Made by a program: the position numbers and the translations under genes
In this document: positions 1,390 to 38,345 of the stretch, in pieces
Numbering within the stretch: the first letter of the stretch is position 1
Layout: each line of letters begins with the position of its first letter
The notes under the pieces: model-generated
Seen by the model: only the letters and a program-made list of their open reading frames with translations
Databases searched by the model: none
Told to the model about the DNA's origin: nothing
Origin: a virus
Virus record (IMG/VR): IMGVR_UViG_3300045988_129428
Direction: 5' to 3' (one strand)
DNA: 38,466 bases

Positions 1390-1605
1390 ATGGAAAAATT
1401 TATAGAAAAAGAAACTGAAAAAGCATATTTAGTGAATGTTAAGGTTGAAAATGTAATTTTAGATAAAGAAAAAATTATCAAAGTCTGGATTCCCAAAAGT
1501 GCAATTACCATAAAAGGACATGAAATTCGTATTGCGTCATGGATAATTCAAAAAAATATAATAAGACAAGATGGAGATACTTTCAAGGGTTTTGTTATCG
1601 CATAG
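1390..1605 (+). CDS. Hypothetical small protein
   Basis: ATG preceded by AAAGGGG. First gene downstream of the consensus promoter. 71 aa. Confidence 0.6.
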   Translation: MEKFIEKETEKAYLVNVKVENVILDKEKIIKVWIPKSAITIKGHEIRIASWIIQKNIIRQDGDTFKGFVIA

Positions 1606-1616
1606 GAGGTTAAAAA

Positions 1617-2078
1617 ATGGAAAAAAGAAAAGCAAATATAATTTTTAACAAAAATGGTCAAGGTTTTACTACAATAAAAATCACATTACCAGTAGGCTGG
1701 ATTAGAGAGATGGGCTTCACAGAAAATGATAAAAAAGCTGTTATAGAGTTTAAAGATAAAGAAATTAAAATTAAAAAGGAGATAAAAGAAATGAATAGAT
1801 TTGAAATTATTGAAAAAATGTTTGAAAAACTTAATATTATTGTAGATGGTAGAGAAATTTGGAATTTAATTGAAAATGATATAAATTCAAATGGAAAAAT
1901 GGACGGAGTTCATTCTATTGAGTTGGGAAAATTGGGTGATAATAGAGATTTATGTTTTGCAGAAGTTGAAATTAAAATGAATTATTCAGAAGAAGATGAT
2001 ACTTATGTTACTGATATAGAGATTCTATCTATTAGTAATAGCAAAGAAGTTATTTATCCCGAAGATATTGAAGTGTAA
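1617..2078 (+). CDS. AbrB/SpoVT-like (looped-hinge) DNA-binding domain protein with an unknown C-terminal domain
   Basis: RBS AGGAGG. The N-terminal TTIKITLPVGWIREMGFTENDKKAVIEFKDKEIKIKK fits the SpoVT-AbrB pattern (v.iPk.ir..lg...gd.v.i....i.i). Confidence 0.65.
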   Translation: MEKRKANIIFNKNGQGFTTIKITLPVGWIREMGFTENDKKAVIEFKDKEIKIKKEIKEMNRFEIIEKMFEKLNIIVDGREIWNLIENDINSNGKMDGVHSIELGKLGDNRDLCFAEVEIKMNYSEEDDTYVTDIEILSISNSKEVIYPEDIEV

Positions 2079-2184
2079 GTGAATAATTAAGTAAAATAAG
2101 CTAGGCATTATTTTCCCAAAAATCCTTGATAATATTATATAAAGTATGTTATTATATAATATATAAATTAAAAAGGGGCAATAT

Positions 2185-3129
2185 ATGAAAGAAAGTAAAA
2201 ATGAAAATAATTTACCGATGAACTGGCTTAATTTTTGGAAATATTTCAGATTTCCCGTTTCGTTAATATTATCATTTATGAATATTTCTTCGGTTATTTA
2301 TTTAATAAATTTAAATAATGCTACAGTTTCCGCTAAAACGTTAATTGCAATACTTATAGATATTTTAATTTTGATTTTTATATCTGTAACTTATGCTTTT
2401 TTCTTGGCTCGTAAATCTATATCGTACAAGATATTTATTTGTTACTTAATTATAATAGAATTGATTTCGACTCCAATTTTAAATATAGTAACTAAATATT
2501 TATATATTGGCTTTCCTACACTTCCAGAACTTATTACTGAATGCGCTTTTACTGTAGTTATATGGGGACTTGTATGGATATTGCCTAATTATATATATTT
2601 CAGTAAACGTGAAAAATATTTTGATAAAAAAAATGATGAATTAGATTTAGATGTTGATAAAATCAAAAAACAAGAGGAAACTGCTGATGCAAAAAGCGAA
2701 GAAGTCCAAAAGCACACTTTTCCTACTTCAATAGAATTTATTCATGAAAACACAAAAAATTTAAAGATAAACAATAAGTTTATAACATGTTTAATACTTA
2801 TAATTGTTGAAACAATAGCAATTTTAATACTTGGAATATTTCTTTTTAAAGAAAAGAGTACTGCTGATAATCAAATGGCTAAAATAATTTCTCTTAATTC
2901 AGAAATAAAGGAACAACGTAGTTCTGCTAGTTTATATAAAACATTGTATAATGAGCAAGAAGATAAGGTAAAATTCATGGACGACCATGTTGTAATTGTA
3001 CCAGAATATACTAATATTTATCACAAATATGAATGTCAATACCTTGACTTAACAAATGGAGGATATATATTTAATCCTGAAAATGCTGAAGCTCAAGGAT
3101 ATAAGGCTTGTAAACATTGTAATAAGTAA
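2185..3129 (+). CDS. Multi-pass membrane protein with a cytoplasmic coiled-coil and a C-terminal Cys/His motif
   Basis: RBS AAGGGG. Several hydrophobic helices lie in the first ~150 aa and another near aa 200-225. The C-terminus is IYHKYECQYL...GYKACKHCNK. Confidence 0.7.
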   Translation: MKESKNENNLPMNWLNFWKYFRFPVSLILSFMNISSVIYLINLNNATVSAKTLIAILIDILILIFISVTYAFFLARKSISYKIFICYLIIIELISTPILNIVTKYLYIGFPTLPELITECAFTVVIWGLVWILPNYIYFSKREKYFDKKNDELDLDVDKIKKQEETADAKSEEVQKHTFPTSIEFIHENTKNLKINNKFITCLILIIVETIAILILGIFLFKEKSTADNQMAKIISLNSEIKEQRSSASLYKTLYNEQEDKVKFMDDHVVIVPEYTNIYHKYECQYLDLTNGGYIFNPENAEAQGYKACKHCNK

Positions 3130-3139
3130 ATAATATATT

Positions 3140-3171
3140 AGAACCCAGGCTAAATAAATAGTCTAGGTTCT
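3140..3171. terminator. Bidirectional terminator hairpin between convergent genes
   Basis: AGAACCCAGGCT-8 nt-AGTCTAGGTTCT (imperfect), followed by TTTTAGTTTTT on the plus strand. Confidence 0.55.
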
Positions 3172-3179
3172 TTTAGTTT

Positions 3180-6100
3180 TTAATAATCATATGAACCATC
3201 TGGAAATTCTTTATCTGGTTTATTAAGTGTTACCCCTGCAAATTTACTCATAATTTCTAGTTTTTCTTTTACTGTCCTGTTTGGCATATTTCTTACATAA
3301 TTTTCTACTATTTCTCTATCTGAAGCATTTCTTGGTCTATATTCTAATGCATATAAAATAAGTTTTTGAGTGTATGTAGCTCCTTTTATTGAGTAAATAT
3401 AATCAAATACTTTGTCTTTTTTGCTTCCTGTTATCGACTTTCCATTAACTGTTCCATCGTCTTTCTTATCTGCTTTAAATTCTTGTGCTTTATATTGTAA
3501 GTACTTACTCATATTTAAGCCCGAGCCTGTAAAAGATTCTTTAACTATATCATATTTTGTATCCTTTTTTCCTAGCGAATTTTCATATATTGCCTTTTTA
3601 GTTTTTTCATCATATTTACTATTGGCAAGAACCTCTAATTTTTCTGAATCTTTGTCTAATCCTTGTGTGTTAGCTAAAAATTCAAAATAATTGCTAGTAT
3701 TGCCACCGGTTTTTTTAATAGCATTGGTTACTTGTGATAATGTACTCTGTTCATTCTTTAAACAATTTTGTCTGGCATAATCAATTTTTACTTGTTCTGT
3801 ACTATAACTATATATTTTTTCTATTGCTAATTGCTTTTGAGAATCGGACAATTTTTTATATCCATCGGAATTTATTAAATTCTTTAATAATTCATATGAA
3901 GTTTCTCCAAATTGTTTTTTATATTTAGCAAATTCTTTTGATGTCATAACATATTTCTTTTTATCTATTGTCAGATTCTTGTTTATAGTATCAGGGAATA
4001 CTGAACTTTCTCCAGTATTCTCATACACCTTAGTAATCTCTTTGTCTACATTGTTTGAATTTAATTCTTTTCTTGCCCATGGAAATACTGCATTTTCCAA
4101 TGCTCTTAAAGCAATGTTATCTGATTGTTTCTGTTCTTGTCCCCATATATCTGTTTTTATTGGAAGTTTTTGTCTTAATCCTGGAATTTTATTCATTATT
4201 TGAGTTCTTGTTGTATCTATTGCTTTTGGTAATACACCTGTTTTTGTCGAAGTAGTATTTCTTTCATATTCATCAGTTGTTTTAGCAATTTGACCTAAAG
4301 CTGTTGGTATAAATTGATTTACGTATGATTTAATTGAATTTGTTCCTATACCAGCCAACATTTTTGAACTTCCTTGATCATAGCTTTTAAGTGCAGATGT
4401 CAAACCACTAAGCATAGACATTTCAGTCATTGGGTTCATTGCATTACTAAATGAATCTAAGATGTTCATTGATGCGTCAACTACTTTGTTATAGTATTCA
4501 TCCTCATCACTAGAAGATGTTTTCTTTTCTTTTTGAGTTTTCATTAATTCATAACATTCTGCTCCTATAAATAACGGAATGCCTGATGGAGCAAGCCAAT
4601 CTAATGAGTATGTATTGTTTCCAATTGTTATTGCATAGTTTTGACTGCCTCTTCCTTCTTCAAATTTTTCCTTGTCTTCATCATCGCTTCCAGTTGCCTT
4701 TAAGACTCCACAGTTTGCAAGAGCATATCCCACTAATGCTATTCCTGTTCCTGTTAATCCTTTAGAAATGTTGTCTATATATTTATTAGCTGTAATATTG
4801 CCTTTTCTTAGTTGAACTGTATCATATACTGCACTTTTTACTAAACCAACTGGGCTATATTCTAGTCCAGCTTTTGCGACATTTATAGGTGTTTTTTTGA
4901 ATGGCAATGTAGCATCTAATACAAACTTTGAGAATTTGTTCTTATTAGATAATTGATTTATCAACGAAGCTAATTGACTGTCTTGATGAAATGTAGCTTC
5001 TTTCGCTTGTTCAATAGCAAAATTTCTTGCTTTTCCTAGCTGTTGGTCTGTTATAGTGTCTGGAGTTAATTTGTTTGCAGTCATATATTCTGATAGAGCT
5101 TTCACATAGCCTGCTTTTAATCCCCAACCATCTTCCGCTTCTAGTGCTTTATTATTTAAGTCAAACGCTTTTCCAATTGTATTTTCCATTGCATCGCTTT
5201 TAAATGTACGCATATTATTTTCTAGTCTAGTTTTGGGATTATATTTATTTTCATTCAAACCTAGTCTGTCAACAACATTTTCTATATCTGCCTTAGCAAA
5301 TGCTTTTACTTCTTTGCTAGCTGGAATTACGGTATGATTTCTTTCCATGTCTGGATTTATTTTACTTACCGCACTTTCTATTCCTCCTGCAACTTTATTC
5401 TTTATTCCTTGTACTCCCCCCATTGCTGTATTTCCTACAATGTTTCTTATATGGGTTCTAGGATTAGCCAACATTGAGAAATATCTCCAGGCATCAATTT
5501 TTTGTGCCGTTGTTTTTGTTAATTGTTGTCCTAACTCTTTATATACTTCATTTAAGTTTTGTTCTAGTACTTTAGCGTTTTCAGAATTAGTAATTTTGTT
5601 TAGCATTTCTGGTGTCAATTTAAATTGTTCCGCATCTTCTCCTCTTGTTCTTTTTAAGTCTTTGTTCATTTTGTCTACTGACCTTTGCAACCACACTGCT
5701 TGACCTTCTGGAGTTTGATGATTCAATAAAGACATTGCTTGTACTGTTTGACCTGCTGTTGTTCCTGCCATTGCTGTTGCTTGAATGGCATCTTGCAATT
5801 TTGATTTATTACCAGTTTTAGAATAATATTGTATTAACCTTTCTCCTATTGCTATGTCTTCAGCCTTTATAGTACCTCCAGTAGTTGCTCTTGATAGTAA
5901 AGACGATAATTCACTATCAGCTCCAGTTGTTGATATTCTGTCATCAGCTAATTCTAATTGTTTTGAGTTGGATTCTGGAACATAAGTATCAGTTCCCATT
6001 AAACTTTTAGCAATTGCCTTTGCTTCATCAGTTGTATAGTTACTTTTTATTATTGACTCATAATGCTTTCTTCTTTTTTCGCCCTCTTTCTTCTGTTTAG

Positions 6101-9100
6101 TCCACTCGCCAGTTTCTAATTCATTTGACTTATGTGTTGTTTGAGCTTGTTTATTTTCCTGTGTCTTGGTATACGAATTAGCATTACTTGCTTTTTGTAC
6201 TAATATATCCTGCATATTAGTTCTTGTTCCAGAAGCTTTGAAATTATCTTCTAAATACTTTTGCCACGAACCACTCTCTTTTTGTATAGAATATCTATTA
6301 TTCTCTGGAAAATAACCAAATTCATTTATATCATCTCCGCCCCATAAAATATCTTTTGCTTTTACTTTAAGTTCTAAAATATTTCCTTTTCCATCTAACT
6401 GTGAATTATTGTGTAATTCTGCATATTTTTTTGATGGAGTAACCCAATCTCCAAAATTTATTTCATTTCCTGGTGTTGCTCTATATATCATAATCTCTGC
6501 ATCAGGTTTTTTTCTAACTTTTTTCAAAGCATTGAGAGATTCAATATTATAATCTTCTCTCATATTAATATACCATTCTGGATGTTCGAAAACCCCATCC
6601 ATATTTCTTTCAAAATTAGAAGCATTTCCATATTCTTCTGATGGTCGATGAGTCATCATATAATCCGTTTTGTTTTCCGCTTTGTTTGATTCTAGATATA
6701 TTTCACTGTTTGTCGACTCACTGTTATTAACTATATATTCAGCAATATCCGTTCCTAATGTTTTTTCTAACGAATGCTTATCAATAAATGAACCATCATA
6801 AGTTATTTTTCCTGAATTGTTTACCGCTTGTACATAATACACTCCATCTTCTCTTGTTCTAAAAAACAAAGTACTTGCATTATTTAAATTTTCATTTCCT
6901 GTTACATCAAATCTTTTGTCTTGCATAGAAAAAGAACCTGAATTGTTTTCAGATTCTTGCATAGAATATTTAGTAGTAGTATTGACATCTTTGGTTTGAG
7001 GTGCTATACTATCTTTAATAGAAGAGTTAGCAACGTTGGAATATTGTATTCTTTCATTGAAATCTAACTCTTCATTTTTTTTGTATATTTGTTCAAAATT
7101 ATTTTTATTTATATAATTATCTAAATTGTTTCTCCCATAAACACTTTTTATTTGGTTTTCATCTATAAATACATTGTTGTATCTTCCATTGCCATTTATT
7201 TGTATTGGTATAACAATTTCTTTTCCATTATTATCCTTAAATTCTGTAACTACTAAATAATTATTTTCACTTGTTTTATATATAGCTTGTGGGGAGTCTA
7301 AGTTATCAATTGCTTTAATCAATAAATCTTTTCCTAATCCATGGTAATTTACATTCTTAGTTGGCAACCCCAAGTTTTCTGCTTCTTGTAGTGTATAAAT
7401 TGTGCTTTTTATATGTTTTTGAGTAATTAACATTGGTAAATTATCTACTCCATTATCTACCAGTATTTGAGGAGTATAATCCCTTGCTTTTACTTGAGTA
7501 TTTGATTGTAATTGATTATTTAGTGCTTTATCTATTTCACTTGAAAAATTTTCACTTATGTGATAATTTTCCGTATTTTTTAATTCACTATTGCTATTAT
7601 ATGCCTGTGTCCATTTATTGTATAAATCTTCTACAAATTCATTCTGGTTTTTATAGCCTCTAAATTGGTGCCATAAATATTTTATTTCATTATAAATCTT
7701 TTTAAAGAACGATGGATTTGTGTTTGCTACATTGTTAATAAATTCCTGATTTCCAAATAGCTGTGCTGAGACATCTGCTAGTGCTTCTTCTGTTATTTCA
7801 GTAGAATTGTAGTTACCTAATAGTTGTTTTACTGATGTATCAAATTCTACATTACTTTTTCTGTAATTCTCTACAATATTTAGCATTTCTTTTGTTCCAA
7901 TTGCATGTGTCAATTCATGTATTGCTATAAATTCTCCTGCTCTGTTAGAATTAGGGTTTATTGTTATTGTTCCATTAGCATATGAACCATTGACAACTCT
8001 TCCATCTGGAGTTTTTAGTTCTCCATCTAGTCTTATATCTATATCTTTATCTGTTATAATTTTCTCTAACATGTCAATATAAGCATGAGATTCTTTTGAA
8101 TTATCAAAATATTTACTTGCATCTTCTCTTAAATTGTTTATTTTAGCATTGTCGCTTTTTTCATATTGATAACTTTGTGTCAAAAATTCTTTGTTATTTT
8201 CTACAGCTATAGTATTTGTTATATCATTTGTTAAAGAATTATTTTTTCTAGTTTCATTCACAGCATTATTTATTGTATTTACCCACTCGTCTGATGTAAA
8301 TTTCTGAAAAGCTACAGATGTTTTTGATTGACTATCATATTGTGTTATACTTTTACTTGGCTCTATATCGAACCAACTTTTATATGCAATTTGCTCTATC
8401 TCTGCATTGCTTTTGTTAGCTATTCTCTTGCCAATCTCGTCTGCAACTGTCAACCATTGCTTTACAGTTCTTCTTCCATTTCTATTAGTAGGTGTCATAT
8501 CTAGTACTTCATTTACCTCTGTTGAATCATAGATATTAGTATCATTCTTATACTGCATATACTTTTTTCTTCTTGCTTGGTCATTTTTAGAATCTATTTT
8601 TGTGTCTAATCTATTTGCATCTTCTAAAGAGTTAATATTTTGCCTTATTGAACCAATATCTGCATCTGATACTTCATTCATGTTGTTTAATACATCTAAC
8701 ATCATTGTTTTATAATCTTCTGATATATTACTATTTGTTATTTCATTACCTGCTATTTGTTTCAATTGATTTGAGTATGTATTTTCTTTGTTTACTGCCG
8801 GTAAAGAGTTCTGTTCTACATTTATGTTATTATTTTCTTTTATTGCTTCTATAGAACCTTTTATTACTTCTTCTACATTTATTTTACCACTATTTTGAAT
8901 ATCTTTCATTGCTGTTTTTATTTCATTTTGTGTTACTGCTTGTCCATTATTATGTTTGTTTACAACATTTACAGCACTACCAATACCAGCACTAACTCCT
9001 GATAACAATACTGCACTTAATGCTCCATCTATACCCGAATTAATCATTCTTTGCCCCATATTATTCCAATCGGCGCTTTCTTTCCCACCAGTAATTGTTG

Positions 9101-10055
9101 CTGTTAATTCGCTAAGTGGTTCCATGATAGCTTCTTGCGCAAAGTTTTCAGTAATGTCTAAGCCATAGCTACCTAATATCTCTTTACTTAATTCATGTCC
9201 AGTTGCTAATTTAACTCCTTTGTTAAGCATATTACCAGATATTACTGCTTCTGTCCCACCTTCTAATGTTCCCATTATACTTGCATATCCAAATGCCTCA
9301 TCTTCTTTCATTCCTCTTGCTTTGGCATCATCTAAGTAACTACCTCCTGCTGAAGTCATAAACATTGCTGTACTTAAAGCTCTCGCTCCTGGTACTGGTG
9401 CTAAAGCTACTGCCATAGGCAGGGCATTATTTCCTATAGATGGTGCTAATTCAGCCAACTTAGTGCCTAAAAAATTATTAGTTTTAGAAATATTATTTTG
9501 AATAGTGTTCGTTCTCCATTTTTCTATGTCTGCATTGTTAAGTTCTTGATTTGTTTTTGCTATTGGATTTAGTGAACTGTGAATTTTTTCACCTAATGTA
9601 TTACCTACTATTTGTCCGACTTTGTCTGAAAATTCTTTATTCTTAGTCGCTCTATTTAACAATCCTCTAATAATTGTACTTGTTGCTTTTTTAGTGGCTA
9701 TTTTATTACCTTCGTTCATATACTTACTCATATTAGGAATAACATTTTCTATTCCCATTCCAATATTACCTAAAACACCTGTCACATTATCTATTGTATC
9801 TGTAAAATTATTGCTTTCTCTGAATTTCTTTAAATTTTTTGTTTCCTGCTGTGATGCAATTTTTACTCTTGGAAAATCGATTGATGAACTTCTATCATAT
9901 ACTGGCATTTCGTTTTTTGGCTTACTCATGTTTGCAGTTGGTAAATCCATTGAAATTTTGCTATTTGTATTATTTTTATTTTTGCTCATAAAATCCAACA
10001 ATTCTTTTGCTTTTTCTTTTTCTTCATCAGACAATTCATATATTTTTTTTGCCAT
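3180..10055 (-). CDS. Giant (2291 aa) multidomain protein; candidate virion-delivered polyvalent or ejection protein with a zincin (HExxH) domain
   Basis: RBS AAGGAGG. Uninterrupted 6.9-kb ORF. Gly/Ala-rich hydrophobic segments occur at aa ~200-370 and ~1766-1785. HELTH at aa 713-717 (nt 7905..7919). A conserved-looking C-terminal module includes LPFKKTPINV (nt 4878..4907). Confidence 0.9.
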   Translation of the reverse strand: MAKKIYELSDEEKEKAKELLDFMSKNKNNTNSKISMDLPTANMSKPKNEMPVYDRSSSIDFPRVKIASQQETKNLKKFRESNNFTDTIDNVTGVLGNIGMGIENVIPNMSKYMNEGNKIATKKATSTIIRGLLNRATKNKEFSDKVGQIVGNTLGEKIHSSLNPIAKTNQELNNADIEKWRTNTIQNNISKTNNFLGTKLAELAPSIGNNALPMAVALAPVPGARALSTAMFMTSAGGSYLDDAKARGMKEDEAFGYASIMGTLEGGTEAVISGNMLNKGVKLATGHELSKEILGSYGLDITENFAQEAIMEPLSELTATITGGKESADWNNMGQRMINSGIDGALSAVLLSGVSAGIGSAVNVVNKHNNGQAVTQNEIKTAMKDIQNSGKINVEEVIKGSIEAIKENNNINVEQNSLPAVNKENTYSNQLKQIAGNEITNSNISEDYKTMMLDVLNNMNEVSDADIGSIRQNINSLEDANRLDTKIDSKNDQARRKKYMQYKNDTNIYDSTEVNEVLDMTPTNRNGRRTVKQWLTVADEIGKRIANKSNAEIEQIAYKSWFDIEPSKSITQYDSQSKTSVAFQKFTSDEWVNTINNAVNETRKNNSLTNDITNTIAVENNKEFLTQSYQYEKSDNAKINNLREDASKYFDNSKESHAYIDMLEKIITDKDIDIRLDGELKTPDGRVVNGSYANGTITINPNSNRAGEFIAIHELTHAIGTKEMLNIVENYRKSNVEFDTSVKQLLGNYNSTEITEEALADVSAQLFGNQEFINNVANTNPSFFKKIYNEIKYLWHQFRGYKNQNEFVEDLYNKWTQAYNSNSELKNTENYHISENFSSEIDKALNNQLQSNTQVKARDYTPQILVDNGVDNLPMLITQKHIKSTIYTLQEAENLGLPTKNVNYHGLGKDLLIKAIDNLDSPQAIYKTSENNYLVVTEFKDNNGKEIVIPIQINGNGRYNNVFIDENQIKSVYGRNNLDNYINKNNFEQIYKKNEELDFNERIQYSNVANSSIKDSIAPQTKDVNTTTKYSMQESENNSGSFSMQDKRFDVTGNENLNNASTLFFRTREDGVYYVQAVNNSGKITYDGSFIDKHSLEKTLGTDIAEYIVNNSESTNSEIYLESNKAENKTDYMMTHRPSEEYGNASNFERNMDGVFEHPEWYINMREDYNIESLNALKKVRKKPDAEIMIYRATPGNEINFGDWVTPSKKYAELHNNSQLDGKGNILELKVKAKDILWGGDDINEFGYFPENNRYSIQKESGSWQKYLEDNFKASGTRTNMQDILVQKASNANSYTKTQENKQAQTTHKSNELETGEWTKQKKEGEKRRKHYESIIKSNYTTDEAKAIAKSLMGTDTYVPESNSKQLELADDRISTTGADSELSSLLSRATTGGTIKAEDIAIGERLIQYYSKTGNKSKLQDAIQATAMAGTTAGQTVQAMSLLNHQTPEGQAVWLQRSVDKMNKDLKRTRGEDAEQFKLTPEMLNKITNSENAKVLEQNLNEVYKELGQQLTKTTAQKIDAWRYFSMLANPRTHIRNIVGNTAMGGVQGIKNKVAGGIESAVSKINPDMERNHTVIPASKEVKAFAKADIENVVDRLGLNENKYNPKTRLENNMRTFKSDAMENTIGKAFDLNNKALEAEDGWGLKAGYVKALSEYMTANKLTPDTITDQQLGKARNFAIEQAKEATFHQDSQLASLINQLSNKNKFSKFVLDATLPFKKTPINVAKAGLEYSPVGLVKSAVYDTVQLRKGNITANKYIDNISKGLTGTGIALVGYALANCGVLKATGSDDEDKEKFEEGRGSQNYAITIGNNTYSLDWLAPSGIPLFIGAECYELMKTQKEKKTSSSDEDEYYNKVVDASMNILDSFSNAMNPMTEMSMLSGLTSALKSYDQGSSKMLAGIGTNSIKSYVNQFIPTALGQIAKTTDEYERNTTSTKTGVLPKAIDTTRTQIMNKIPGLRQKLPIKTDIWGQEQKQSDNIALRALENAVFPWARKELNSNNVDKEITKVYENTGESSVFPDTINKNLTIDKKKYVMTSKEFAKYKKQFGETSYELLKNLINSDGYKKLSDSQKQLAIEKIYSYSTEQVKIDYARQNCLKNEQSTLSQVTNAIKKTGGNTSNYFEFLANTQGLDKDSEKLEVLANSKYDEKTKKAIYENSLGKKDTKYDIVKESFTGSGLNMSKYLQYKAQEFKADKKDDGTVNGKSITGSKKDKVFDYIYSIKGATYTQKLILYALEYRPRNASDREIVENYVRNMPNRTVKEKLEIMSKFAGVTLNKPDKEFPDGSYDY

Positions 10056-31831: not shown

Positions 31832-32122
31832 CTATAAATAATTTTTACCATATCTTAATCTAAATTCTTCTTCTGTTTTATTGTAATATTCTTGCCAAGT
31901 CTTTTGAGCAACTACTTTCAACCACTCCCATTGTTTAGGATTTAAGTGGATTGAGTCATTACCAGTCCTGTGTTGATACGGCATAATGAATATTACTAAT
32001 CCATCTTCTATTGACTTATCTCTGTTGCCTGTTCTACCTTCAAATATTTCATGTCTTTCACTTCCTGGAAATCGCTCTGTTTCGTAATACGGATTTTGTG
32101 GCATTATGCTAAACTCTTTCAT
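31832..32122 (-). CDS. Possible HNH-like (beta-beta-alpha-metal) nuclease module
   Basis: ERHEIFEGRTGNRDKSIEDGLVIFIMPYQHRTGNDSIHLN resembles the phage H-x-F-G-NR...GL...H...H pattern. Overlaps the upstream gene by 14 nt. Confidence 0.35.
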   Translation of the reverse strand: MKEFSIMPQNPYYETERFPGSERHEIFEGRTGNRDKSIEDGLVIFIMPYQHRTGNDSIHLNPKQWEWLKVVAQKTWQEYYNKTEEEFRLRYGKNYL

Positions 32123-32561
32123 TCTCTATCCACCTCAACTTTGCTATTTCATTTGGTGTTAGTGTTGGTATTCCTTGTTGCTCTGCTTCTTGTATAGTAC
32201 CTTCTAAAAGCACATTAAATTCGTTCTTATCCATTTCTGAGCTTCCCTTGTATACTTTATATACTTTAAACTTTACTCCGTTTATACTGGTTTCTCTATC
32301 AAATTCAAAGTATCTTATATAACCTTTTATATCTATGTCGCTTTTTATAGTTATTAATGCTACTTGTGAATAATCTTTAAGCAATCTAAAATGTGTTTCT
32401 TCTTTAGATAATTTCAGTTTGTTTGCTAACTCATTTACTAACACCCAGTAATAAGCGTTTTGTGTTAATGTTCTCTTTTCTTTATGTTCTTTTATTTCAA
32501 ATATTTTTGTTCTTTCTTGATTGAATAACCATTTAAGTAATGTTTCTGCTGTACCTAACAT
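32109..32561 (-). CDS. NinB-like recombination mediator domain protein
   Basis: RBS AGGAGG. RTLTQNAYYWVLVNELA resembles the NinB RSLDQN..LWA motif. Confidence 0.4.
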   Translation of the reverse strand: MLGTAETLLKWLFNQERTKIFEIKEHKEKRTLTQNAYYWVLVNELANKLKLSKEETHFRLLKDYSQVALITIKSDIDIKGYIRYFEFDRETSINGVKFKVYKVYKGSSEMDKNEFNVLLEGTIQEAEQQGIPTLTPNEIAKLRWIENERV

Positions 32562-32574
32562 AGTTACCTCCTAA

Positions 32575-32967
32575 TTAAAATGGCAAATCGTCTGAGCTAG
32601 ATATTTCAAAATCATTAGTAGTGTCTAATGTTGTATCTGCTTGTCCTTCTTTTTTACTATCTGCAAAATATACTTCTTCTGCAATAACTTCTGTTATATA
32701 ATGCTTTTGTCCTTGGTCATCGTCCCAAGTCCTTGTTTGTATTCTTCCAATAACTCCTACTTGTTGTCCTTTTTTAAAGTATTTGCTGACAAATTCTGCT
32801 GTTTTGCTCCAAGCAACTATATTTATAAAATCTGCTTGTTGTTCTCCTTCTTTTGCAAATCTTCTATTTACAGCTAATGTAAAACTTGTTACTTGTGTAT
32901 TTGTTGTTTGTGTATATCTTGTATCTGGATCTTTAGTAAGACGCCCCATTAATATTGTTTTATTCAT
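32575..32967 (-). CDS. ssb: Single-stranded DNA-binding protein
   Basis: The ATG at 32967 follows AGGAGG. MNKTILMGRLTKDPDTRYT... OB fold and an acidic tail ending DDLPF. Confidence 0.9.
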   Translation of the reverse strand: MNKTILMGRLTKDPDTRYTQTTNTQVTSFTLAVNRRFAKEGEQQADFINIVAWSKTAEFVSKYFKKGQQVGVIGRIQTRTWDDDQGQKHYITEVIAEEVYFADSKKEGQADTTLDTTNDFEISSSDDLPF

Positions 32968-33586
32968 TGTTATTTCCTCCTTCAATTTTATTTGGTATAT
33001 CTTTGATTGCTATCATAATCTTTGCATATTGTTCGCTATTTAGCTCTGTTGTATTATTTAAGTTATAATTCTTTTGTAATAATGCTTGTACATTTAAGCC
33101 TTTGTTTTCCATAATTTCTTGTAATCTTTTTGCATCTTCTGCGCTAATTAGTTGATTTTTTGGTTTACTTCCTTCTGGAGTTTCTCCATCTGGATCTTTC
33201 ATTTCTTCTGTTGGAATACAGAATACTTGAAATAGTGCATACTTCATAGCTATTGCCATTGCTTTATTAGTTGCTTTATCTCCACTATCCATTCCTTCTC
33301 CAACTGTTACTGCTTCAATATAAGTTCCATCTTCTGCATAAAAAATATATTTTATTTTGCATATAGAATAAATTAAGTTTCCACCTTTGTTTGTTGTTCT
33401 TTCTTCTCTAGTTTGTTCTAATATTTGAGGAACAATAAATACTTTATTTTTTGATAACAATGGTTGTAAAGTATTCATTACATCATCTATTCCTCTATAC
33501 TTAAATCCTTGAGTTTTATTTGTTTGGTCTTTTCCTATTGCAGGAATTTCTTCCATGATTTTTGTTATACTTTCATAAATATTCAT
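32960..33586 (-). CDS. erf: ERF-family single-strand annealing recombinase
   Basis: IPAIGKDQTN..QGFKYRGIDDV and GEGMDSGDKATNKAMAIAMKYALFQVFCIPT match ERF signatures. Confidence 0.8.
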   Translation of the reverse strand: MNIYESITKIMEEIPAIGKDQTNKTQGFKYRGIDDVMNTLQPLLSKNKVFIVPQILEQTREERTTNKGGNLIYSICKIKYIFYAEDGTYIEAVTVGEGMDSGDKATNKAMAIAMKYALFQVFCIPTEEMKDPDGETPEGSKPKNQLISAEDAKRLQEIMENKGLNVQALLQKNYNLNNTTELNSEQYAKIMIAIKDIPNKIEGGNNNE

Positions 33587-34566: not shown

Positions 34567-34809
34567 CTAAACTAATATTGATTTTGCTTTTTCTAATTTT
34601 GTTTCTGCTTCAATTGCTCTTTTTAATACTGTTTCATATTGTTGATAAGAGACTCCACCATTTTTATAAACTTTTACTTTATATTGATTATTAGTTTTAA
34701 GTCCTTCGAGTTCTCCTTTTAGCAACTGTTTTTTTACTTCTGCTTCTCCTATTCCTGTTTGCTTTGCATAAGCTCTTGCAGATAAATAATAGAATGGTAC
34801 TTCCGGCAT
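34567..34809 (-). CDS. Putative DNA-binding protein (excisionase/HTH_17-like) of the early operon
   Basis: The ATG at 34809 is 7 nt after AAGGAGG. YLSARAYAKQTGIGEAEVKKQLLKGEL is HTH-like. Confidence 0.5.
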   Translation of the reverse strand: MPEVPFYYLSARAYAKQTGIGEAEVKKQLLKGELEGLKTNNQYKVKVYKNGGVSYQQYETVLKRAIEAETKLEKAKSILV

Positions 34810-34838
34810 TACTTCGCCTCCTTTACTCAAACTTCTTC

Positions 34839-35066
34839 TTATTTTATTTCACAAGTATTGCTTGTATTTTCATCTAAAAAAATTTGTGGAAATATATAAT
34901 TTATAGGTTTGTTGTAAAATTGTGACAACTTTATGCAAATCCCTATCTTGGGTGGTTTGTTAGAATTTTCAATGTTCGAATATTGCTGTTGTGTAATTCC
35001 TAAAAACCTTGCTATGACTACTTGTGGTCTATTTCCTCTTAATTCTTTACATTTATTGTTTTTCAT
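34839..35066 (-). CDS. Cro-like XRE-family HTH regulator
   Basis: The ATG at 35066 follows AGAGGTG. VIARFLGITQQQYSNIEN HTH. Divergent from the cI-like gene. Confidence 0.8.
   Translation of the reverse strand: MKNNKCKELRGNRPQVVIARFLGITQQQYSNIENSNKPPKIGICIKLSQFYNKPINYIFPQIFLDENTSNTCEIK
34851..34865. promoter_or_regulatory. Distal operator copy ACAAGTATTGCTTGT
   Basis: Same ACAAG-N5-CTTGT palindrome as the four intergenic operators. Lies in the 3' end of the cro-like gene. Confidence 0.5.
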
Positions 35067-35083
35067 ACTATTCACCTCTTTTT

Positions 35084-35191
35084 ACAAGTTTTTCTTGTTG
35101 TTGCGATTATATTATCACAAGTAAAACTTGTTGTCAATAGTTTTTTACAATTTTTTCTTGTTTTTTATTTACTTATACAAATTTAGCTTGT
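35084..35191. promoter_or_regulatory. Genetic switch region: four ACAAn-N5-CTTGT operators and divergent promoters
   Basis: Operators at 35084..35098, 35117..35131, 35147..35161 and 35177..35191. Leftward promoter TTGACA (35137..35132), 17 nt, TAATAT (35114..35109), with an operator filling the spacer. Rightward promoter TTTACT (35168..35173), 17 nt, TATAAT (35191..35196). Confidence 0.75.
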
Positions 35192-35214
35192 ATAATATTG
35201 TTAGAGGTGTTGAT

Positions 35215-35553
35215 ATGAATAGGATTAGACAATTAAGAGAAGAATTTAAAATTTCTCAAACTGAATTGGGAAAAAAATTAAATAAGACACAACAACAAAT
35301 AAGTTTATATGAAAATGGAACAAATGAATTAGATTTAGATGGTTATATAATTTTATCAGAGTTATTTGGTTGCTGTATTGAATATATAGCTGGTAAATCC
35401 GACATAAGAAACCCACAGCAATCTGACCCACTTGGCCTTGCTAAGGTGGGCTTTAGTATGGACAAATATGTTCCTCCAACAGACGTACAAAGAGAGCAGA
35501 TAAAAGGATTGCTTGAAGTGATATTAAAGGATAATAAGAAGGAGGAAAAATAA
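35215..35553 (+). CDS. cI/ImmR-like XRE-family repressor (no S24 peptidase domain)
   Basis: The ATG at 35215 follows AGAGGTG. The track start at 35128 is a hydrophobic upstream extension across the operators. FKISQTELGKKLNKTQQQISLYENG HTH. Confidence 0.85.
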   Translation: MNRIRQLREEFKISQTELGKKLNKTQQQISLYENGTNELDLDGYIILSELFGCCIEYIAGKSDIRNPQQSDPLGLAKVGFSMDKYVPPTDVQREQIKGLLEVILKDNKKEEK

Positions 35554-35816
35554 TGAGTATAACAACTGAATTTAAAGCAAAGAAATGTTTAAAATGTGGA
35601 GCAACGACTGATCCTGATGACGAAGAAGAACTATTTTGTTCTAAATGTGGCGCTCCTGTTGTAAATCGTTGTTCTGATTATAATTGTAGTAAATTTTTAA
35701 AGGAAGATGCACAATTCTGTAAATATTGTGGTGCTTCTTCTATATTCAAAAATTATGGATTATTTGATAATAGTGCCCCTAAATTTTCAGATAACATAGA
35801 TAATTTACCATTTTAA
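35553..35816 (+). CDS. Double zinc-ribbon protein
   Basis: CLKCG...CSKCG...C....C...CKYCG. Its start overlaps the repressor stop (TAATG). Confidence 0.7.
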   Translation: MSITTEFKAKKCLKCGATTDPDDEEELFCSKCGAPVVNRCSDYNCSKFLKEDAQFCKYCGASSIFKNYGLFDNSAPKFSDNIDNLPF

Positions 35817-36601
35817 TGTATTTACTTTATATTGATGACTCTGGCTCTTGTGATTTAAAAAAAGATGAAATATGTATGAAAAATGGGGGTACAAATTCTA
35901 GATATTTTGTTTTAGGTTCTATATTATTAAAAGCACATGAATTAAATAGAATAGAGCCACAAATTGAATACATAAGAACTTTCTGTTTAGGAGATAATTT
36001 AAAAGAACTAAAACACAGCGTTAAGTCTCAATCTATGCAATGTATAACAAATTGTCATAAAGAAAAATCAGACATTCCCTGTTATAAGAAAAATATTGCG
36101 AACTTAATAAGCTCTTCTGATTGTACAGTTTTTGTTACTTATCAAGATAAATATTTAAATTTCAAAAGTAACTTAGTAAATTCTAAAAATGATATTTACA
36201 GGCTATCTTTTGAACACTTATTAAAGAGTGTTGATGATTATATGTATTATAAAACTATTCAAGAAGATGTTATTGTATTTATAGATAAAAAAGATGGTGG
36301 TTCTGAAAAGGATAAGCTAATATATAAGTCATATAAACAAGCATTATCTAATAAAAAATTATTTAAGGCATTTAATAATACTATCTTTAGCCCTACTATA
36401 AATATTGTCTATTCTCAATTTACTTCTGGCTGTCAATTAGCGGATTTTATTGCAGGTTCAGTATGGAATTTTTTTGAGAATAAAGATAATAAAGAAAAAC
36501 AAAGCGAATTAAAAGAATATACTTCATTATACGCTAATAAGGTATATCAAAGAGACAGAAAAATGATAGGATTAAAGTGCTGTGATAGTCTCTTAAAATA
36601 A
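35816..36601 (+). CDS. DUF3800-family protein
   Basis: N-terminal LYIDDSGS and C-terminal QLADFIAGSVW are the two DUF3800 signature motifs. Its start overlaps the upstream stop (TAATG). Confidence 0.75.
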   Translation: MYLLYIDDSGSCDLKKDEICMKNGGTNSRYFVLGSILLKAHELNRIEPQIEYIRTFCLGDNLKELKHSVKSQSMQCITNCHKEKSDIPCYKKNIANLISSSDCTVFVTYQDKYLNFKSNLVNSKNDIYRLSFEHLLKSVDDYMYYKTIQEDVIVFIDKKDGGSEKDKLIYKSYKQALSNKKLFKAFNNTIFSPTINIVYSQFTSGCQLADFIAGSVWNFFENKDNKEKQSELKEYTSLYANKVYQRDRKMIGLKCCDSLLK

Positions 36602-36609
36602 AAAAAGAA

Positions 36610-36646
36610 TGGAACCTACAACCCATAGGGTCGTTTACAGGTTCCA
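36610..36646. other. GC-rich nested hairpin
   Basis: TGGAACCT...ACCC-ata-GGGT...AGGTTCCA. The T tract is on the minus-strand side only (plus strand has AAAAAAAGAA upstream). Confidence 0.5.
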
Positions 36647-36696
36647 TGTCTGTTAATAATTCTAGTGTTATTATTATAACATATAGAATTACAGTT

Positions 36697-36710
36697 TGTC
36701 AAATTTGACA
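36697..36710. promoter_or_regulatory. Perfect 14-bp palindrome TGTCAAATTTGACA upstream of the ImmA-like/int genes
   Basis: Read directly. It contains TTGACA on both strands and is flanked by an outer inverted repeat CTAGTGT (36662..36668) / ACACTAG (36708..36714). Confidence 0.4.
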
Positions 36711-36757
36711 CTAGTATTTTATTCAATTTTATTAAAATTATTCTTATAGAGGTAATT

Positions 36758-37195
36758 ATGAATTTAAATTATTTATACGATTTAACTGAAAAAGAAAAAG
36801 TAAAAGTATATAACTGGCATATTGAAGATGCTGACGGTGCTTATATCAATATAGATAAGATAAATGCTATTGCTCTGAACTATGATAATATTGGTACTTA
36901 TATAGAAGAAAAGTGTGTATTAGCCGAGGAACTTGGACATTATTATTATGATGCTACTTATTCTTTATACTGTCAAGATTTGCAGGTTATATCAAAGCAA
37001 GAACGAAAGGCTAAAAAGTGGGCATATAATGTTCTTGTTCCTTACGAGGATTTACGCAGAGCAATTAAAAATGGTTTGACAACAGTTTATAGCTTGGCAA
37101 ATTATTTCGAGGTTACTGAGGCTTTTATAAGCAAATGTGTTGCATTTTATATAGAAAAATATGGAGATTTTACAGAAGAAGCATTAAGTTATTAG
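36758..37195 (+). CDS. ImmA/IrrE (M78)-like metallopeptidase with variant motif EELGH
   Basis: [22 protein letters not shown]....[19 protein letters not shown] aligns with the family pattern laHElgH....E.eAn.fA..lLmP, but Glu replaces the first His. Confidence 0.65.
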
Positions 37196-37223
37196 TGTTT
37201 CTTTTTTTAGAAAGGATTTGAAT

Positions 37224-38345
37224 ATGGCAAAGAAAACTAATTATTCTAAAAATGGCAAAAATTATTATAGAATCACAAAAACTATAAGTAAAAAACCTGA
37301 CGGCACTTCAATAAAAAAAGAATTTTACGGTTCCTGCAAAGCGGAAGCTGAAGAAAAAGCAACTAAATATATTAATGATTTAAAGTTAGGATTAATCGAA
37401 AAAGATAAAAAGTATACTATAAATATATTGTTGCCACTATGGTTATATGGAACCAAGAGAAACACAGTTAAAGCATCTACTTTAGACAGCTATGATGGTA
37501 TATACAAAAAATATATTAAGCCTAATGTAATCTCAAATATTCCAATTAATGATATAAAAACTTTAAAAATACAAGAATATTATAATAATTTAGATACAAC
37601 TGCTAGTAATGTTAAAAAGGTTCATAAACTACTTTACCAATTTTTCAATTATTCTGAAAAAGAAGGCTATATAGTTAAAAATCCTTGCAATAACGTTTCT
37701 CTTCCCAAAGAGAAAAAAACAACATTAGAAGTTTTAAAAAATAAATCTAAATTTCAATATTATAGTGAAGATGAAATAAAAAGGTTAAAGGAAGTTTTTA
37801 AAGATAATAAATTCAAAAATGTAGTTTTATTCGCTCTTGGAACAGGTATGCGAAGAGGAGAAATATTTGGACTGCAATGGTCTGACATTGACTTTGAAAA
37901 AAAAGAAATACATGTTATACACAATTTAACATATATGGCAACAAACATCACCGAGACTTCTAAAACTTATCATTTAACACTACAAACTCCAAAAACTGAA
38001 AACTCAATCAGGACTATACCTATGTCAGACAGTATTTATAAACTATTAAAATCAATTTATGACATAAATTCAACTTATGTGTTTTCTCCTAACGACGGGC
38101 ATTTTGATATAAAATATTTTGAAAAAGTTTATAAGAAAAAATTAAAAGAAGCGCATATCGAAAATAAGAACTTTCACGACTTAAGACACACATTTGCAAC
38201 TATGTTATTGGCAAATGGAGCAGATCTTATAACGGTTAAAGAGTTGCTTGGTCATAGTTCAATAAAAACAACAGAAATATATTTAGAAGCATTACCTAAA
38301 ACCAAAGAAGATGTTGTCAATAAAATCAATTTTATTTGTAACTGA
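37224..38345 (+). CDS. int: Tyrosine recombinase (phage integrase)
   Basis: The ATG at 37224 is 7 nt after AAAGGA; the track start at 37218 is [34 protein letters not shown] catalytic signatures. Confidence 0.9.

Follow-up and report, generated by a model that had tools for sequence, protein, structure and literature searches.

A viral stretch of DNA of 38,466 nucleotides (nt), IMG/VR record IMGVR_UViG_3300045988_129428, presented as one strand and hereafter termed the window, carries between its cI-like repressor gene and the gene for an ImmA/IrrE-type metalloprotease a compact cassette made of a double zinc-ribbon protein (ZnR), a DUF3800 protein and a predicted small RNA (sRNA) encoded on the opposite strand. 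The repressor (35215–35553, plus strand; 112 amino acids (aa) counted from the ATG) matches Pfam HTH_3 at E 1.9e-11 and the phrog_8/phrog_3 repressors, and lies outside the mobile cassette. ZnR follows with 87 aa (35553–35816, plus; Pfam DZR E 1.2e-7, Zn_Ribbon_1 E 9.5e-8) and is succeeded by the DUF3800 protein (35816–36601, plus; 261 aa), which is assigned to PF12686 and for which an AlphaFold2 (AF2) model and Foldseek indicate an RNase HII-like fold. Both the repressor/ZnR and the ZnR/DUF3800 junctions read TAATG, with stop and start codons overlapping by 1 nt, so that the three genes form the chain that an earlier sequence-only reading of the window had described from the same open reading frame (ORF) list and sequence. 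From the right-hand side the sRNA, predicted at ~65–70 nt (36597–36666, minus strand), converges on the end of the DUF3800 gene. The cassette as a whole extends over 35534–36745, from the ZnR ribosome-binding site to the sRNA promoter, and its limits are set by homology breakpoints against the related locus L016.

The coherence of this unit is apparent from its relatives. A search with the DUF3800 protein provided 84 relatives, with loci drawn from GTDB genomes, IMG/VR and metagenomes (designated here by L numbers) and an exact look-up of 12 homologues. The sequence-only reading had proposed a survey of DUF3800 and zinc-ribbon co-occurrence, and in tblastn with the window proteins every full-length relative with 30% identity or more (46/46) has ZnR directly 5' of DUF3800, usually with an overlap of the ZnR stop and the DUF3800 start; the three loci that lack ZnR are partial matches. 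Similarly, for at least 16 of 30 ZnR homologues the longest contigs equal, in nt, those of DUF3800 homologues. Beside DUF3800 proteins of 20–25% identity (Rhizobium and others) no ZnR is detectable by tblastn. The pairing of ZnR and DUF3800 is obligate within the clade, and pairing, position and RNA recur across dozens of independent contigs. The L016 and L017 loci have only 35534–36745 in common with the window, at 91% nt identity and with nothing shared on either side; in L016 a 202-aa helix-turn-helix (HTH) repressor lies on one side of the cassette and a large serine recombinase on the other, and ImmA is missing. In L013, L014 and L018 the cassette is 84–95% identical in nt and the DUF3800 protein 90–99% identical, while the repressor protein reaches only 45–61%. 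Positions 35534–36745 are a self-contained mobile cassette of ~1.2 kb with three co-inherited parts, ZnR, DUF3800 and the sRNA. The clade is rare: of 1.84 billion representatives, 12 clusters pass E <= 1e-30 and 30 pass E <= 1e-10, and a megablast of the region against 50,697 phage records gave no match.

The placement of the cassette relative to the lysogeny genes differs among phages. The order repressor, cassette, ImmA–integrase is displayed by the window, L055 and L058, whereas L092 and L094 keep the repressor next to ImmA and have the cassette between this pair and the integrase; in L065 an S24 LexA-like repressor and other genes precede the cassette, which is again followed by the integrase. 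The L016/L017 breakpoints and the adjacent repressor–ImmA pairs of L092 and L094 uphold the original proposal that the two genes were inserted as a cassette between repressor and ImmA. Since placement varies among relatives, the cassette-insertion reading is right and the translational link to cI is specific to this group of phages; as a general trait the coupling fails, many loci having a gap or other genes between repressor and ZnR. In the Streptococcus suis temperate phage Clyde (PQ720432) and in prophage Javan291 the cassette separates the CI-like repressor from the integrase, and both of its proteins are annotated as hypothetical.

As the cassette is inserted between repressor and ImmA, ZnR and DUF3800 can be made from the lysogenic promoter. 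Co-transcription with the repressor, which had also been anticipated, is plausible in the window: a promoter-like site TTTACT-17-TATAAT (35168–35196, plus; 10/12 matches, a consensus match only) is positioned 19 nt 5' of the repressor ATG, and a scan of the window found no terminator-like site inside the repressor–ZnR–DUF3800 chain. Other accessory genes occupy the repressor-to-integrase interval of relatives, including a ParE/Gp49 toxin gene (L092, 1119–1370, plus), a 250-aa gene (L094 and L095, 1375–2127, plus) and a SHOCT-domain gene (L065, 1017–3139, plus), which suggests that this interval is a hot spot for morons. The cassette is also found in a few non-prophage contexts (L059–L061, L087/L088). 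Its neighbours in L059 and L061 (about 1480–3745) are an RNase-like gene of the beta-CASP/metallo-beta-lactamase kind, a fragment of MutS_I and a bAvd/23S_rRNA_IVP gene, the latter as in diversity-generating retroelements, and those in L060 (1974–2775) are TnpV and DUF6075 genes. The IMG/VR prophage L028 displays two tRNA genes (4000–4073 and 4381–4454, plus) at 550–1000 nt 5' of the cassette.

The DUF3800 protein matches PF12686 with an E of 7.2e-13 and 49.9 bits against a cut-off of 21, over profile positions 1–148 of 149 and with a ~70-aa insertion. The two signature motifs named in the sequence-only reading, YIDDSGS and QLADFIAG, are present, LYIDDSGS spanning residues 4–11 and QLADFIAG residues 207–214, and their key residues D7, D8, Q207 and D210 are invariant in 34 relatives. 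Across all ZnR-linked clades the invariant set consists of D7, D/E8, E64, K66, K112, D157, N196, Q207, D210 and E221. The N-terminal motif is DD in the window and DE in the streptococcal and other clades, and 104 of 147 distant relatives have one or the other. The AF2 model (predicted local distance difference test (pLDDT) 91, predicted template-modelling score 0.91) has as its best solved-structure match in Foldseek the archaeal Tk-RNase HII (2dff; E 9.8e-4, prob 1.0, template-modelling (TM) score 0.41/0.49), and as its best viral structure match in BFVD another DUF3800 protein (TM 0.69/0.74). From the model an RNase HII-like fold with intact carboxylates can be assigned confidently, as a nuclease-like fold had been expected, and published predictions of the DUF3800 fold agree (PMC7736814, PMC10910872). 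Residues D7, D8, D157 and D210 fit a DEDD-type active site as candidate catalytic residues, their roles being derived from strand-end and helix positions in the model. NCBIfam holds no family for DUF3800 and gives only sub-threshold zinc-ribbon matches for ZnR, and a PDB sequence-profile search returned no relative. A conserved zinc site formed by C57, C76, C80 and C89 was considered and rejected, as these residues are invariant in the clostridial clade only and absent in the streptococcal and other clades. In the clostridial proteins they sit in an insertion (residues 57–103, window about 35984–36124; pLDDT 66–89) that neither the Pfam profile nor the streptococcal clade has and that may form a metal site peculiar to the clostridial clade.

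ZnR contains eight invariant Cys residues (C12, C15, C29, C32, C40, C45, C56 and C59), which make up two ribbons, together with a conserved SIFxNYGL motif; its linker is disordered and variable. Its C-terminal tip, DNIDNLPF-COOH (35790–35813, plus), is similar to that of SSB (single-stranded-DNA-binding protein). Residues L85, P86 and F87 are invariant or nearly so in 29 homologues, and all clades share a C-terminus in which acidic residues precede (L/I)PF-COOH (DNIDNLPF in the window, and DISDDDLPF, SDEDLPF, SEDLPF and TEDIPF). Among 177 window ORFs of at least 40 aa, LPF C-termini are restricted to ZnR and the phage SSB (32575–32967, minus; PF00436 E 6.1e-36), which ends ...SSSDDLPF. The SSB tip reads DDDIPF in E. 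coli, its Gram-positive counterpart being IDISDDDLPF (PMC5872125, PMC5531588); it docks SSB onto many genome-maintenance enzymes, of which RNase HI is a known client (PMC6410769). The likeness thus consists of an acidic stretch and (I/L)PF-COOH placed after a disordered linker on a nucleic-acid-binding module, and the streptococcal ZnR tips DISDDDLPF are the motif of S. aureus SsbA, whose tail is usually conserved among Gram-positive SSBs (PMC5531588). In contrast to SSB, ZnR has no oligonucleotide-binding (OB) fold or PF00436 match, Pfam finding only zinc ribbons, and the window tip DNIDNLPF is less acidic. At the level of sequence, the ZnR tip resembles the SSB C-terminal tip. Three of 147 distant stand-alone DUF3800 proteins also end in ...PF, two of them in [DE]IPF: P0179, P0210 and P0182 terminate in ...YEEIPF, ...YYDIPF and ...GYNPF, an SSB-tip-like C-terminus fused to the nuclease in some lineages. 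That some stand-alone DUF3800 proteins carry such ends hints that the SSB-like tip belongs functionally with DUF3800.

The third part of the cassette is the GC-rich hairpin 3' of the DUF3800 gene. The sequence-only reading had recorded this hairpin correctly, but a small RNA gene on the minus strand was missed. The hairpin (36606–36651) has a folding energy of -22.8 kcal/mol and a z of -4.2 against shuffles (-4.18). Its T-run lies on the minus strand only (36600–36606), the 3' side on the plus strand having none, and the only perfect promoter of the scan is located on the minus strand directly right of the hairpin and points into it. This promoter, TTGACA, an 18-nt spacer and TGnTATAAT (36673–36702, minus), displays 12/12 matches together with an extended -10 and is the best site of the region. 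Because T-run and 12/12 promoter both lie on the minus strand, the hairpin is the end of a convergent small RNA gene and not a plus-strand operon terminator. The predicted transcript of 65–70 nt, with its start inferred from the promoter, comprises a 5' tail ACUAGAAUUAUUAACAGACAU (beginning ACUAGAA), a two-helix hairpin and the U7 run of its terminator (36600–36606, minus), which overlaps the DUF3800 stop codon (36599–36601) by 2 nt. In the structured core (36606–36651, minus) helix P1 (9 bp plus 3) is followed by a 5' internal loop GUAA, helix P2 (7 bp) and a UAU loop.

This fold, termed class A, is displayed by the window, L013–L018, L055, L057, L058 and L087. Its helices have 97.9% of cells paired, against 30–52% in slid controls, with 3 compensatory pairs (n = 6 distinct sequences), and its G-U pairs are compatible with the minus strand only. 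A pattern scan for class A over 2.9 million IMG/VR contigs matched exactly the six contigs that have the DUF3800 gene. No antisense target of the 5' tail stands above background within the operon (-13.0 kcal/mol versus -10.7 +/- 1.6). A perfect palindrome TGTCAAATTTGACA (36697–36710), which can be described either as two back-to-back -35 boxes or as an operator, overlaps the -35 box of the sRNA promoter. Palindromes like TGTCAAATTTGACA are found in L001, L002, L013, L014, L018, L055, L058 and L089 and not in L016, L022 and L096; they are present in relatives with ImmA 3' of the cassette (L001, L002, L055, L058 and L089). The promoter scan found no good plus-strand site for ImmA and the integrase, and no good -10 box.

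A minus-strand RNA occupies the same place in nearly every relative with readable downstream sequence. Its layout is that of a promoter, a GC-rich structured segment of 60–100 nt and a U-run at the DUF3800 stop or a few nt beyond it; the corresponding A-run directly follows the stop in almost every relative and is displaced by 6–13 nt in L028 and L030. At most loci a promoter with 10–12/12 consensus positions is found at the same relative place, none scoring above threshold in L003, L004, L028, L036 and L040/L041. At least five structural classes of RNA (A–E) can be distinguished. Class B (17 sequences) is a three-way junction with the invariant junction nucleotides GGGUAGU, AYGYAGA and CGCC, and RNAalifold unaided reproduces the same junction with 11/18 pairs compensatory. 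On the structure proposed here 96% of cells are paired against 34–44% in slid controls, 12/19 pairs show double changes and 0/500 shuffles reach any of five measures. Conserved G-U pairs (columns 12-60 are U-G in 16/17 sequences, columns 14-32 G-U in 11/17) would be A-C mismatches on the plus strand, which places the class B RNA on the minus strand. Class B leaders measure 0–9 nt, or an extra hairpin takes the place of the tail. In 485 kb searched, the class B covariance model found only 18 sites, all directly behind DUF3800 genes (57–79 bits, E 1e-13 to 7e-20). Class C comes from streptococcal prophages, phage Clyde among them, and forms a four-way junction in which 6/28 pairs are compensatory (five sequences), and classes D and E are further folds. 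Rfam 15, which includes the described DUF3800 motifs, gave no match in the window (E <= 10), in 17 related loci (gathering score) or in 8 loci (E <= 1).

A loose class B pattern run on IMG/VR also matched 12 contigs, of which 11 belong to one GC-rich tail-fibre gene family without DUF3800 and were discarded. Because these come from one gene family and lack DUF3800, they represent chance multiplied by homology, and L075, L079 and L081 score 17–22 bits with the class B covariance model as opposed to 57–79 bits at true sites. That this tail-fibre-like family (L075–L084, L086) contains by chance the loose class B core GGGTAGTNNCCC...GGNNNAYGYAGA calls for caution in pattern-based RNA searches.

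On either side of the cassette lie the genes of a temperate phage. To its right the ImmA/IrrE-type metalloprotease (36758–37195, plus; Peptidase_M78 E 3.1e-9, phrog_87 E 1.8e-25) and a tyrosine integrase (37218–38345, plus; Phage_integrase E 3.2e-31) form the context; the HTH repressor and the Peptidase_M78 protease, a putative antirepressor, are found beside the integrase and have the make-up of an ImmR/ImmA-type immunity module. To the left a divergent Cro-like HTH protein is encoded (34839–35075, minus; HTH_3 E 1.5e-8). Divergent promoter-like sites occur within 35109–35196, TTGACA-17-TAATAT (minus, 35137–35109) for the Cro-like gene and TTTACT-17-TATAAT (plus) for the repressor, and in its predicted elements this intergenic layout is that of a classical genetic switch. 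An 87-aa ORF 3' of the Cro-like gene (34567–34830, minus) has 91% identity in L014, L032 and L033, and no Pfam match. Replication and recombination genes include, in addition to the SSB, an ERF-family annealing protein and a weak NinB-like match (ORFs 32960–33586 and 32109–32561, both minus). A very large ORF (3180–10055, minus) of 2291 aa, followed by ORFs of 395 and 321 aa, completes the picture; these three are probably tail, host-interaction and lysis genes.

Taken together, the observations of the sequence-only reading are confirmed and its interpretation is partly supported, with the anatomy of the locus corrected to three parts. We propose that a complex of nuclease, RNA and ZnR is expressed in the lysogen and serves as a prophage moron in phage defence or as an RNA-controlled toxin–antitoxin system, a reading that we consider to stand at about an even chance. 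ZnR, DUF3800 and the sRNA would form a ribonucleoprotein in the lysogen, in which an abundant sRNA, perhaps also ZnR, would keep or tune the nuclease harmless, or direct it. The SSB-like tip would dock on DUF3800, or link the complex to SSB-tail binders at replication and recombination intermediates. An infecting phage would upset the balance, the short RNA being lost after transcription shut-off; alternatively, the trigger might be the flood of SSB-coated DNA and SSB-binding phage proteins. The released nuclease would then cut nucleic acid, leading to abortive infection or exclusion. A role in defence is suggested by the prophage location, the fact that DUF3800 repeatedly occurs together with structured nucleic acids (retrons, Cas12 loci) and a DefenseFinder call in Clyde. 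Exclusion genes classically lie in this position of Gram-positive prophages. A more specific version, possible but rather unlikely, makes ZnR an SSB-tail mimic that would couple an RNA-loaded RNase H-like nuclease to the SSB interactome and so sense phage replication or recombination, with the sRNA as brake. The literature searched contains no SSB-tail mimic in phage defence and no similar prophage system.

Several points weigh against this proposal. PADLOC-DB 2.0 holds no family for ZnR or DUF3800 at E <= 0.01, the toxicity of DUF3800 is presumed, and the complex itself, like the start site and the abundance of the RNA, is inferred. Class A is a simple hairpin, represented by 6 distinct sequences with 3 compensatory pairs, and might amount to hardly more than a terminator. 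With the class B covariance model the window RNA escapes detection even at E <= 10, and the case for homology between classes A and B is one of shared position only. The AF2 model of ZnR is of low confidence (pLDDT 67). In addition, the LPF tip could instead be a ClpXP degron, a role that has been shown for SsbA in certain strains of S. mutans alone (PMC5143411).

A degron of that kind would make ZnR labile, as a selfish addiction module would have it. Here a stable DUF3800 toxin would be opposed by a labile antitoxin, sRNA and/or ZnR, and the prophage would be stabilised, or the module spread, with no role against other phages. The anatomy expected is the same as for the nuclease/RNA/ZnR complex proposed above, the cassette does move alone between elements and also occurs outside recognisable prophage modules (L059–L061, L087/L088), and the ParE toxin gene of L092 lies in the same module. 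Most well-flanked loci, however, have the cassette in the lysogeny module beside the integrase, the classical place of exclusion genes, and we regard pure addiction as unlikely; addiction and defence are hard to separate by sequence since they are not mutually exclusive.

Quite unlikely, in our estimate, is a role in the phage's own cycle, in which the convergent sRNA promoter and hairpin would insulate ImmA and the integrase from read-through of the repressor operon, and the nuclease and ZnR would process nucleic acids of phage or host at induction (for example R-loops, or primers at the phage origin) with the SSB-like tail joining the replisome. The RNA is antisense to any such read-through, no good plus-strand promoter was found for ImmA and the integrase, back-to-back -35 palindromes occur where ImmA follows, and an RNase H fold with an SSB-like tail fits replication biology in a phage that has an SSB, ERF and NinB module. 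Nevertheless the RNA travels with ZnR–DUF3800 whatever follows, be it ImmA, a tyrosine integrase, a serine recombinase or non-phage genes, and the conserved junction nucleotides and multi-helix folds of classes B and C go beyond the needs of an insulator. Moreover, the genes belong to the lysogenic and not to the early lytic operon, and related phages differ only in the presence, absence or placement of the cassette, as for accessory genes.

The ~20-nt unpaired 5' tail of class A (ACUAGAA and ~14 variable nt), followed by what would be a scaffold hairpin, raises the further alternative of an RNA-guided or templated RNase H-like enzyme. Nucleases with an RNase H fold, namely the RuvC domains of TnpB and Cas12, are RNA guided, and DUF3800 accompanies Cas12a2/Cas12a3 (PMC10910872). 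Guidance is nevertheless very unlikely, given that class B has leaders of 0–9 nt or an extra hairpin and no tail, that complementarity of the tail within the operon is at chance level (-13.0 versus -10.7 +/- 1.6 kcal/mol) and that the 261-aa protein has no recognisable guide-binding domains. A two-protein operon closed by a plus-strand terminator hairpin, with no RNA component, is hardly credible even though the hairpin directly 3' of the DUF3800 stop may well stop or pause plus-strand transcription too, for only the minus strand offers a T-run, and the 12/12 promoter lies there as well; read on the plus strand, the G-U pairs would turn into A-C mismatches; and relatives carry covarying three- and four-way junction RNAs at the same site.

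The lysogen-expressed complex can be compared with several known systems. The toxin–antitoxin system ToxIN (type III, abortive infection) shares the proposed logic, a constitutive structured RNA restraining a nuclease and being lost on infection, as well as residence on mobile elements. ToxI-type antitoxins are tandem repeats located upstream on the same strand, and the toxin is an RNase of the ToxN/AbiQ fold. In contrast, the cassette has one convergent copy of its RNA, its nuclease-type protein is RNase HII-like in fold and a further protein is present, so that it is not a ToxIN-type system. The Sie2009 and Ltp exclusion genes lie between repressor and integrase in Gram-positive prophages and encode membrane proteins or lipoproteins that block DNA entry. 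The cassette resembles them in its lysogeny-module position and expected lysogen expression, whereas neither ZnR nor DUF3800 shows a hydrophobic or signal segment, and an RNA belongs to the unit.

For DUF3800 itself the sequence-only reading was aware of no role, whereas the literature ties the family to non-coding RNAs (ncRNAs), type VII retrons and Cas12a2/Cas12a3 loci. DUF3800 is the predicted RNase H2-like effector of type VII retrons, which consist of a reverse transcriptase, msr/msd and DUF3800 (Mestre et al. 2020, PMC7736814), and DefenseFinder labels the phage Clyde homologue retron VII DUF3800 (10.1101/2025.01.07.631744). A predicted RNase H2-like DUF3800 protein with a structured nucleic acid partner, held to be a defence effector, is common to both. 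Gene tables and domain scans covering the cassette with its flanking genes, both in the window and at related loci, show no reverse-transcriptase domain, and PADLOC gave no retron match; the cassette is therefore not a type VII retron. Retron DUF3800 proteins also lack the Q of QxxD, while Q207 is invariant in the cassette clade, and the cassette partner is a plain transcript with its own promoter. DUF3800 is likewise an accessory of Cas12a2/Cas12a3 loci (PMC10910872; 10.64898/2026.01.16.699850). The tetratricopeptide-repeat (TPR)–DUF3800 proteins there share the RNase H-like DUF3800 domain and the part of accessory to an RNA-containing immune effector; the cassette differs in having no TPR domain, cas genes or CRISPR array.

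The closest resemblance is to the DUF3800-associated ncRNAs. Weinberg et al. (2017, PMC5737381) associate DUF3800 with 11 ncRNA motifs, with terminators and on either strand; the motifs described go by the names DUF3800-I to -XI, drum and skipping-rope. Since 2017 this link to many unrelated structured RNAs has had no functional hypothesis (PMC5737381), and no functional work on the drum and skipping-rope RNAs was found in the literature searched. The likeness comprises a structured RNA beside the DUF3800 gene, possibly on the opposite strand, a Rho-independent terminator and several unrelated-looking folds serving related proteins. The cassette RNAs match no Rfam 15 model and so form further classes, and the main text of PMC5737381 does not mention an obligate ZnR with an SSB-like tail, a fixed convergent layout with a consensus promoter or residence in a lysogeny module. 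The cassette thereby presents a compact DUF3800–RNA association, with 1.2 kb, a fixed architecture, a second obligate protein with an SSB-like interaction motif and a lysogen-expressed setting. Since it is carried by the cultured, inducible S. suis phage Clyde (PQ720432), detection of the RNA, toxicity tests, phage challenge and pull-downs are directly feasible. A defence function, if confirmed, would make the cassette a new kind of RNA-containing system and shed light on what DUF3800 does in type VII retrons and Cas12a2/Cas12a3 loci. Should ZnR prove to be an SSB-tail mimic, this would provide the first mechanism for the orphan DUF3800-associated ncRNAs and add to the anti-phage systems a new one that contains RNA and is widespread among prophages of Clostridia and Streptococcus. 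The cassette is best filed as a new form of the known, unexplained DUF3800–ncRNA association, to which it adds ZnR with its SSB-like tip, the convergent architecture, the RNA classes and the prophage moron setting.

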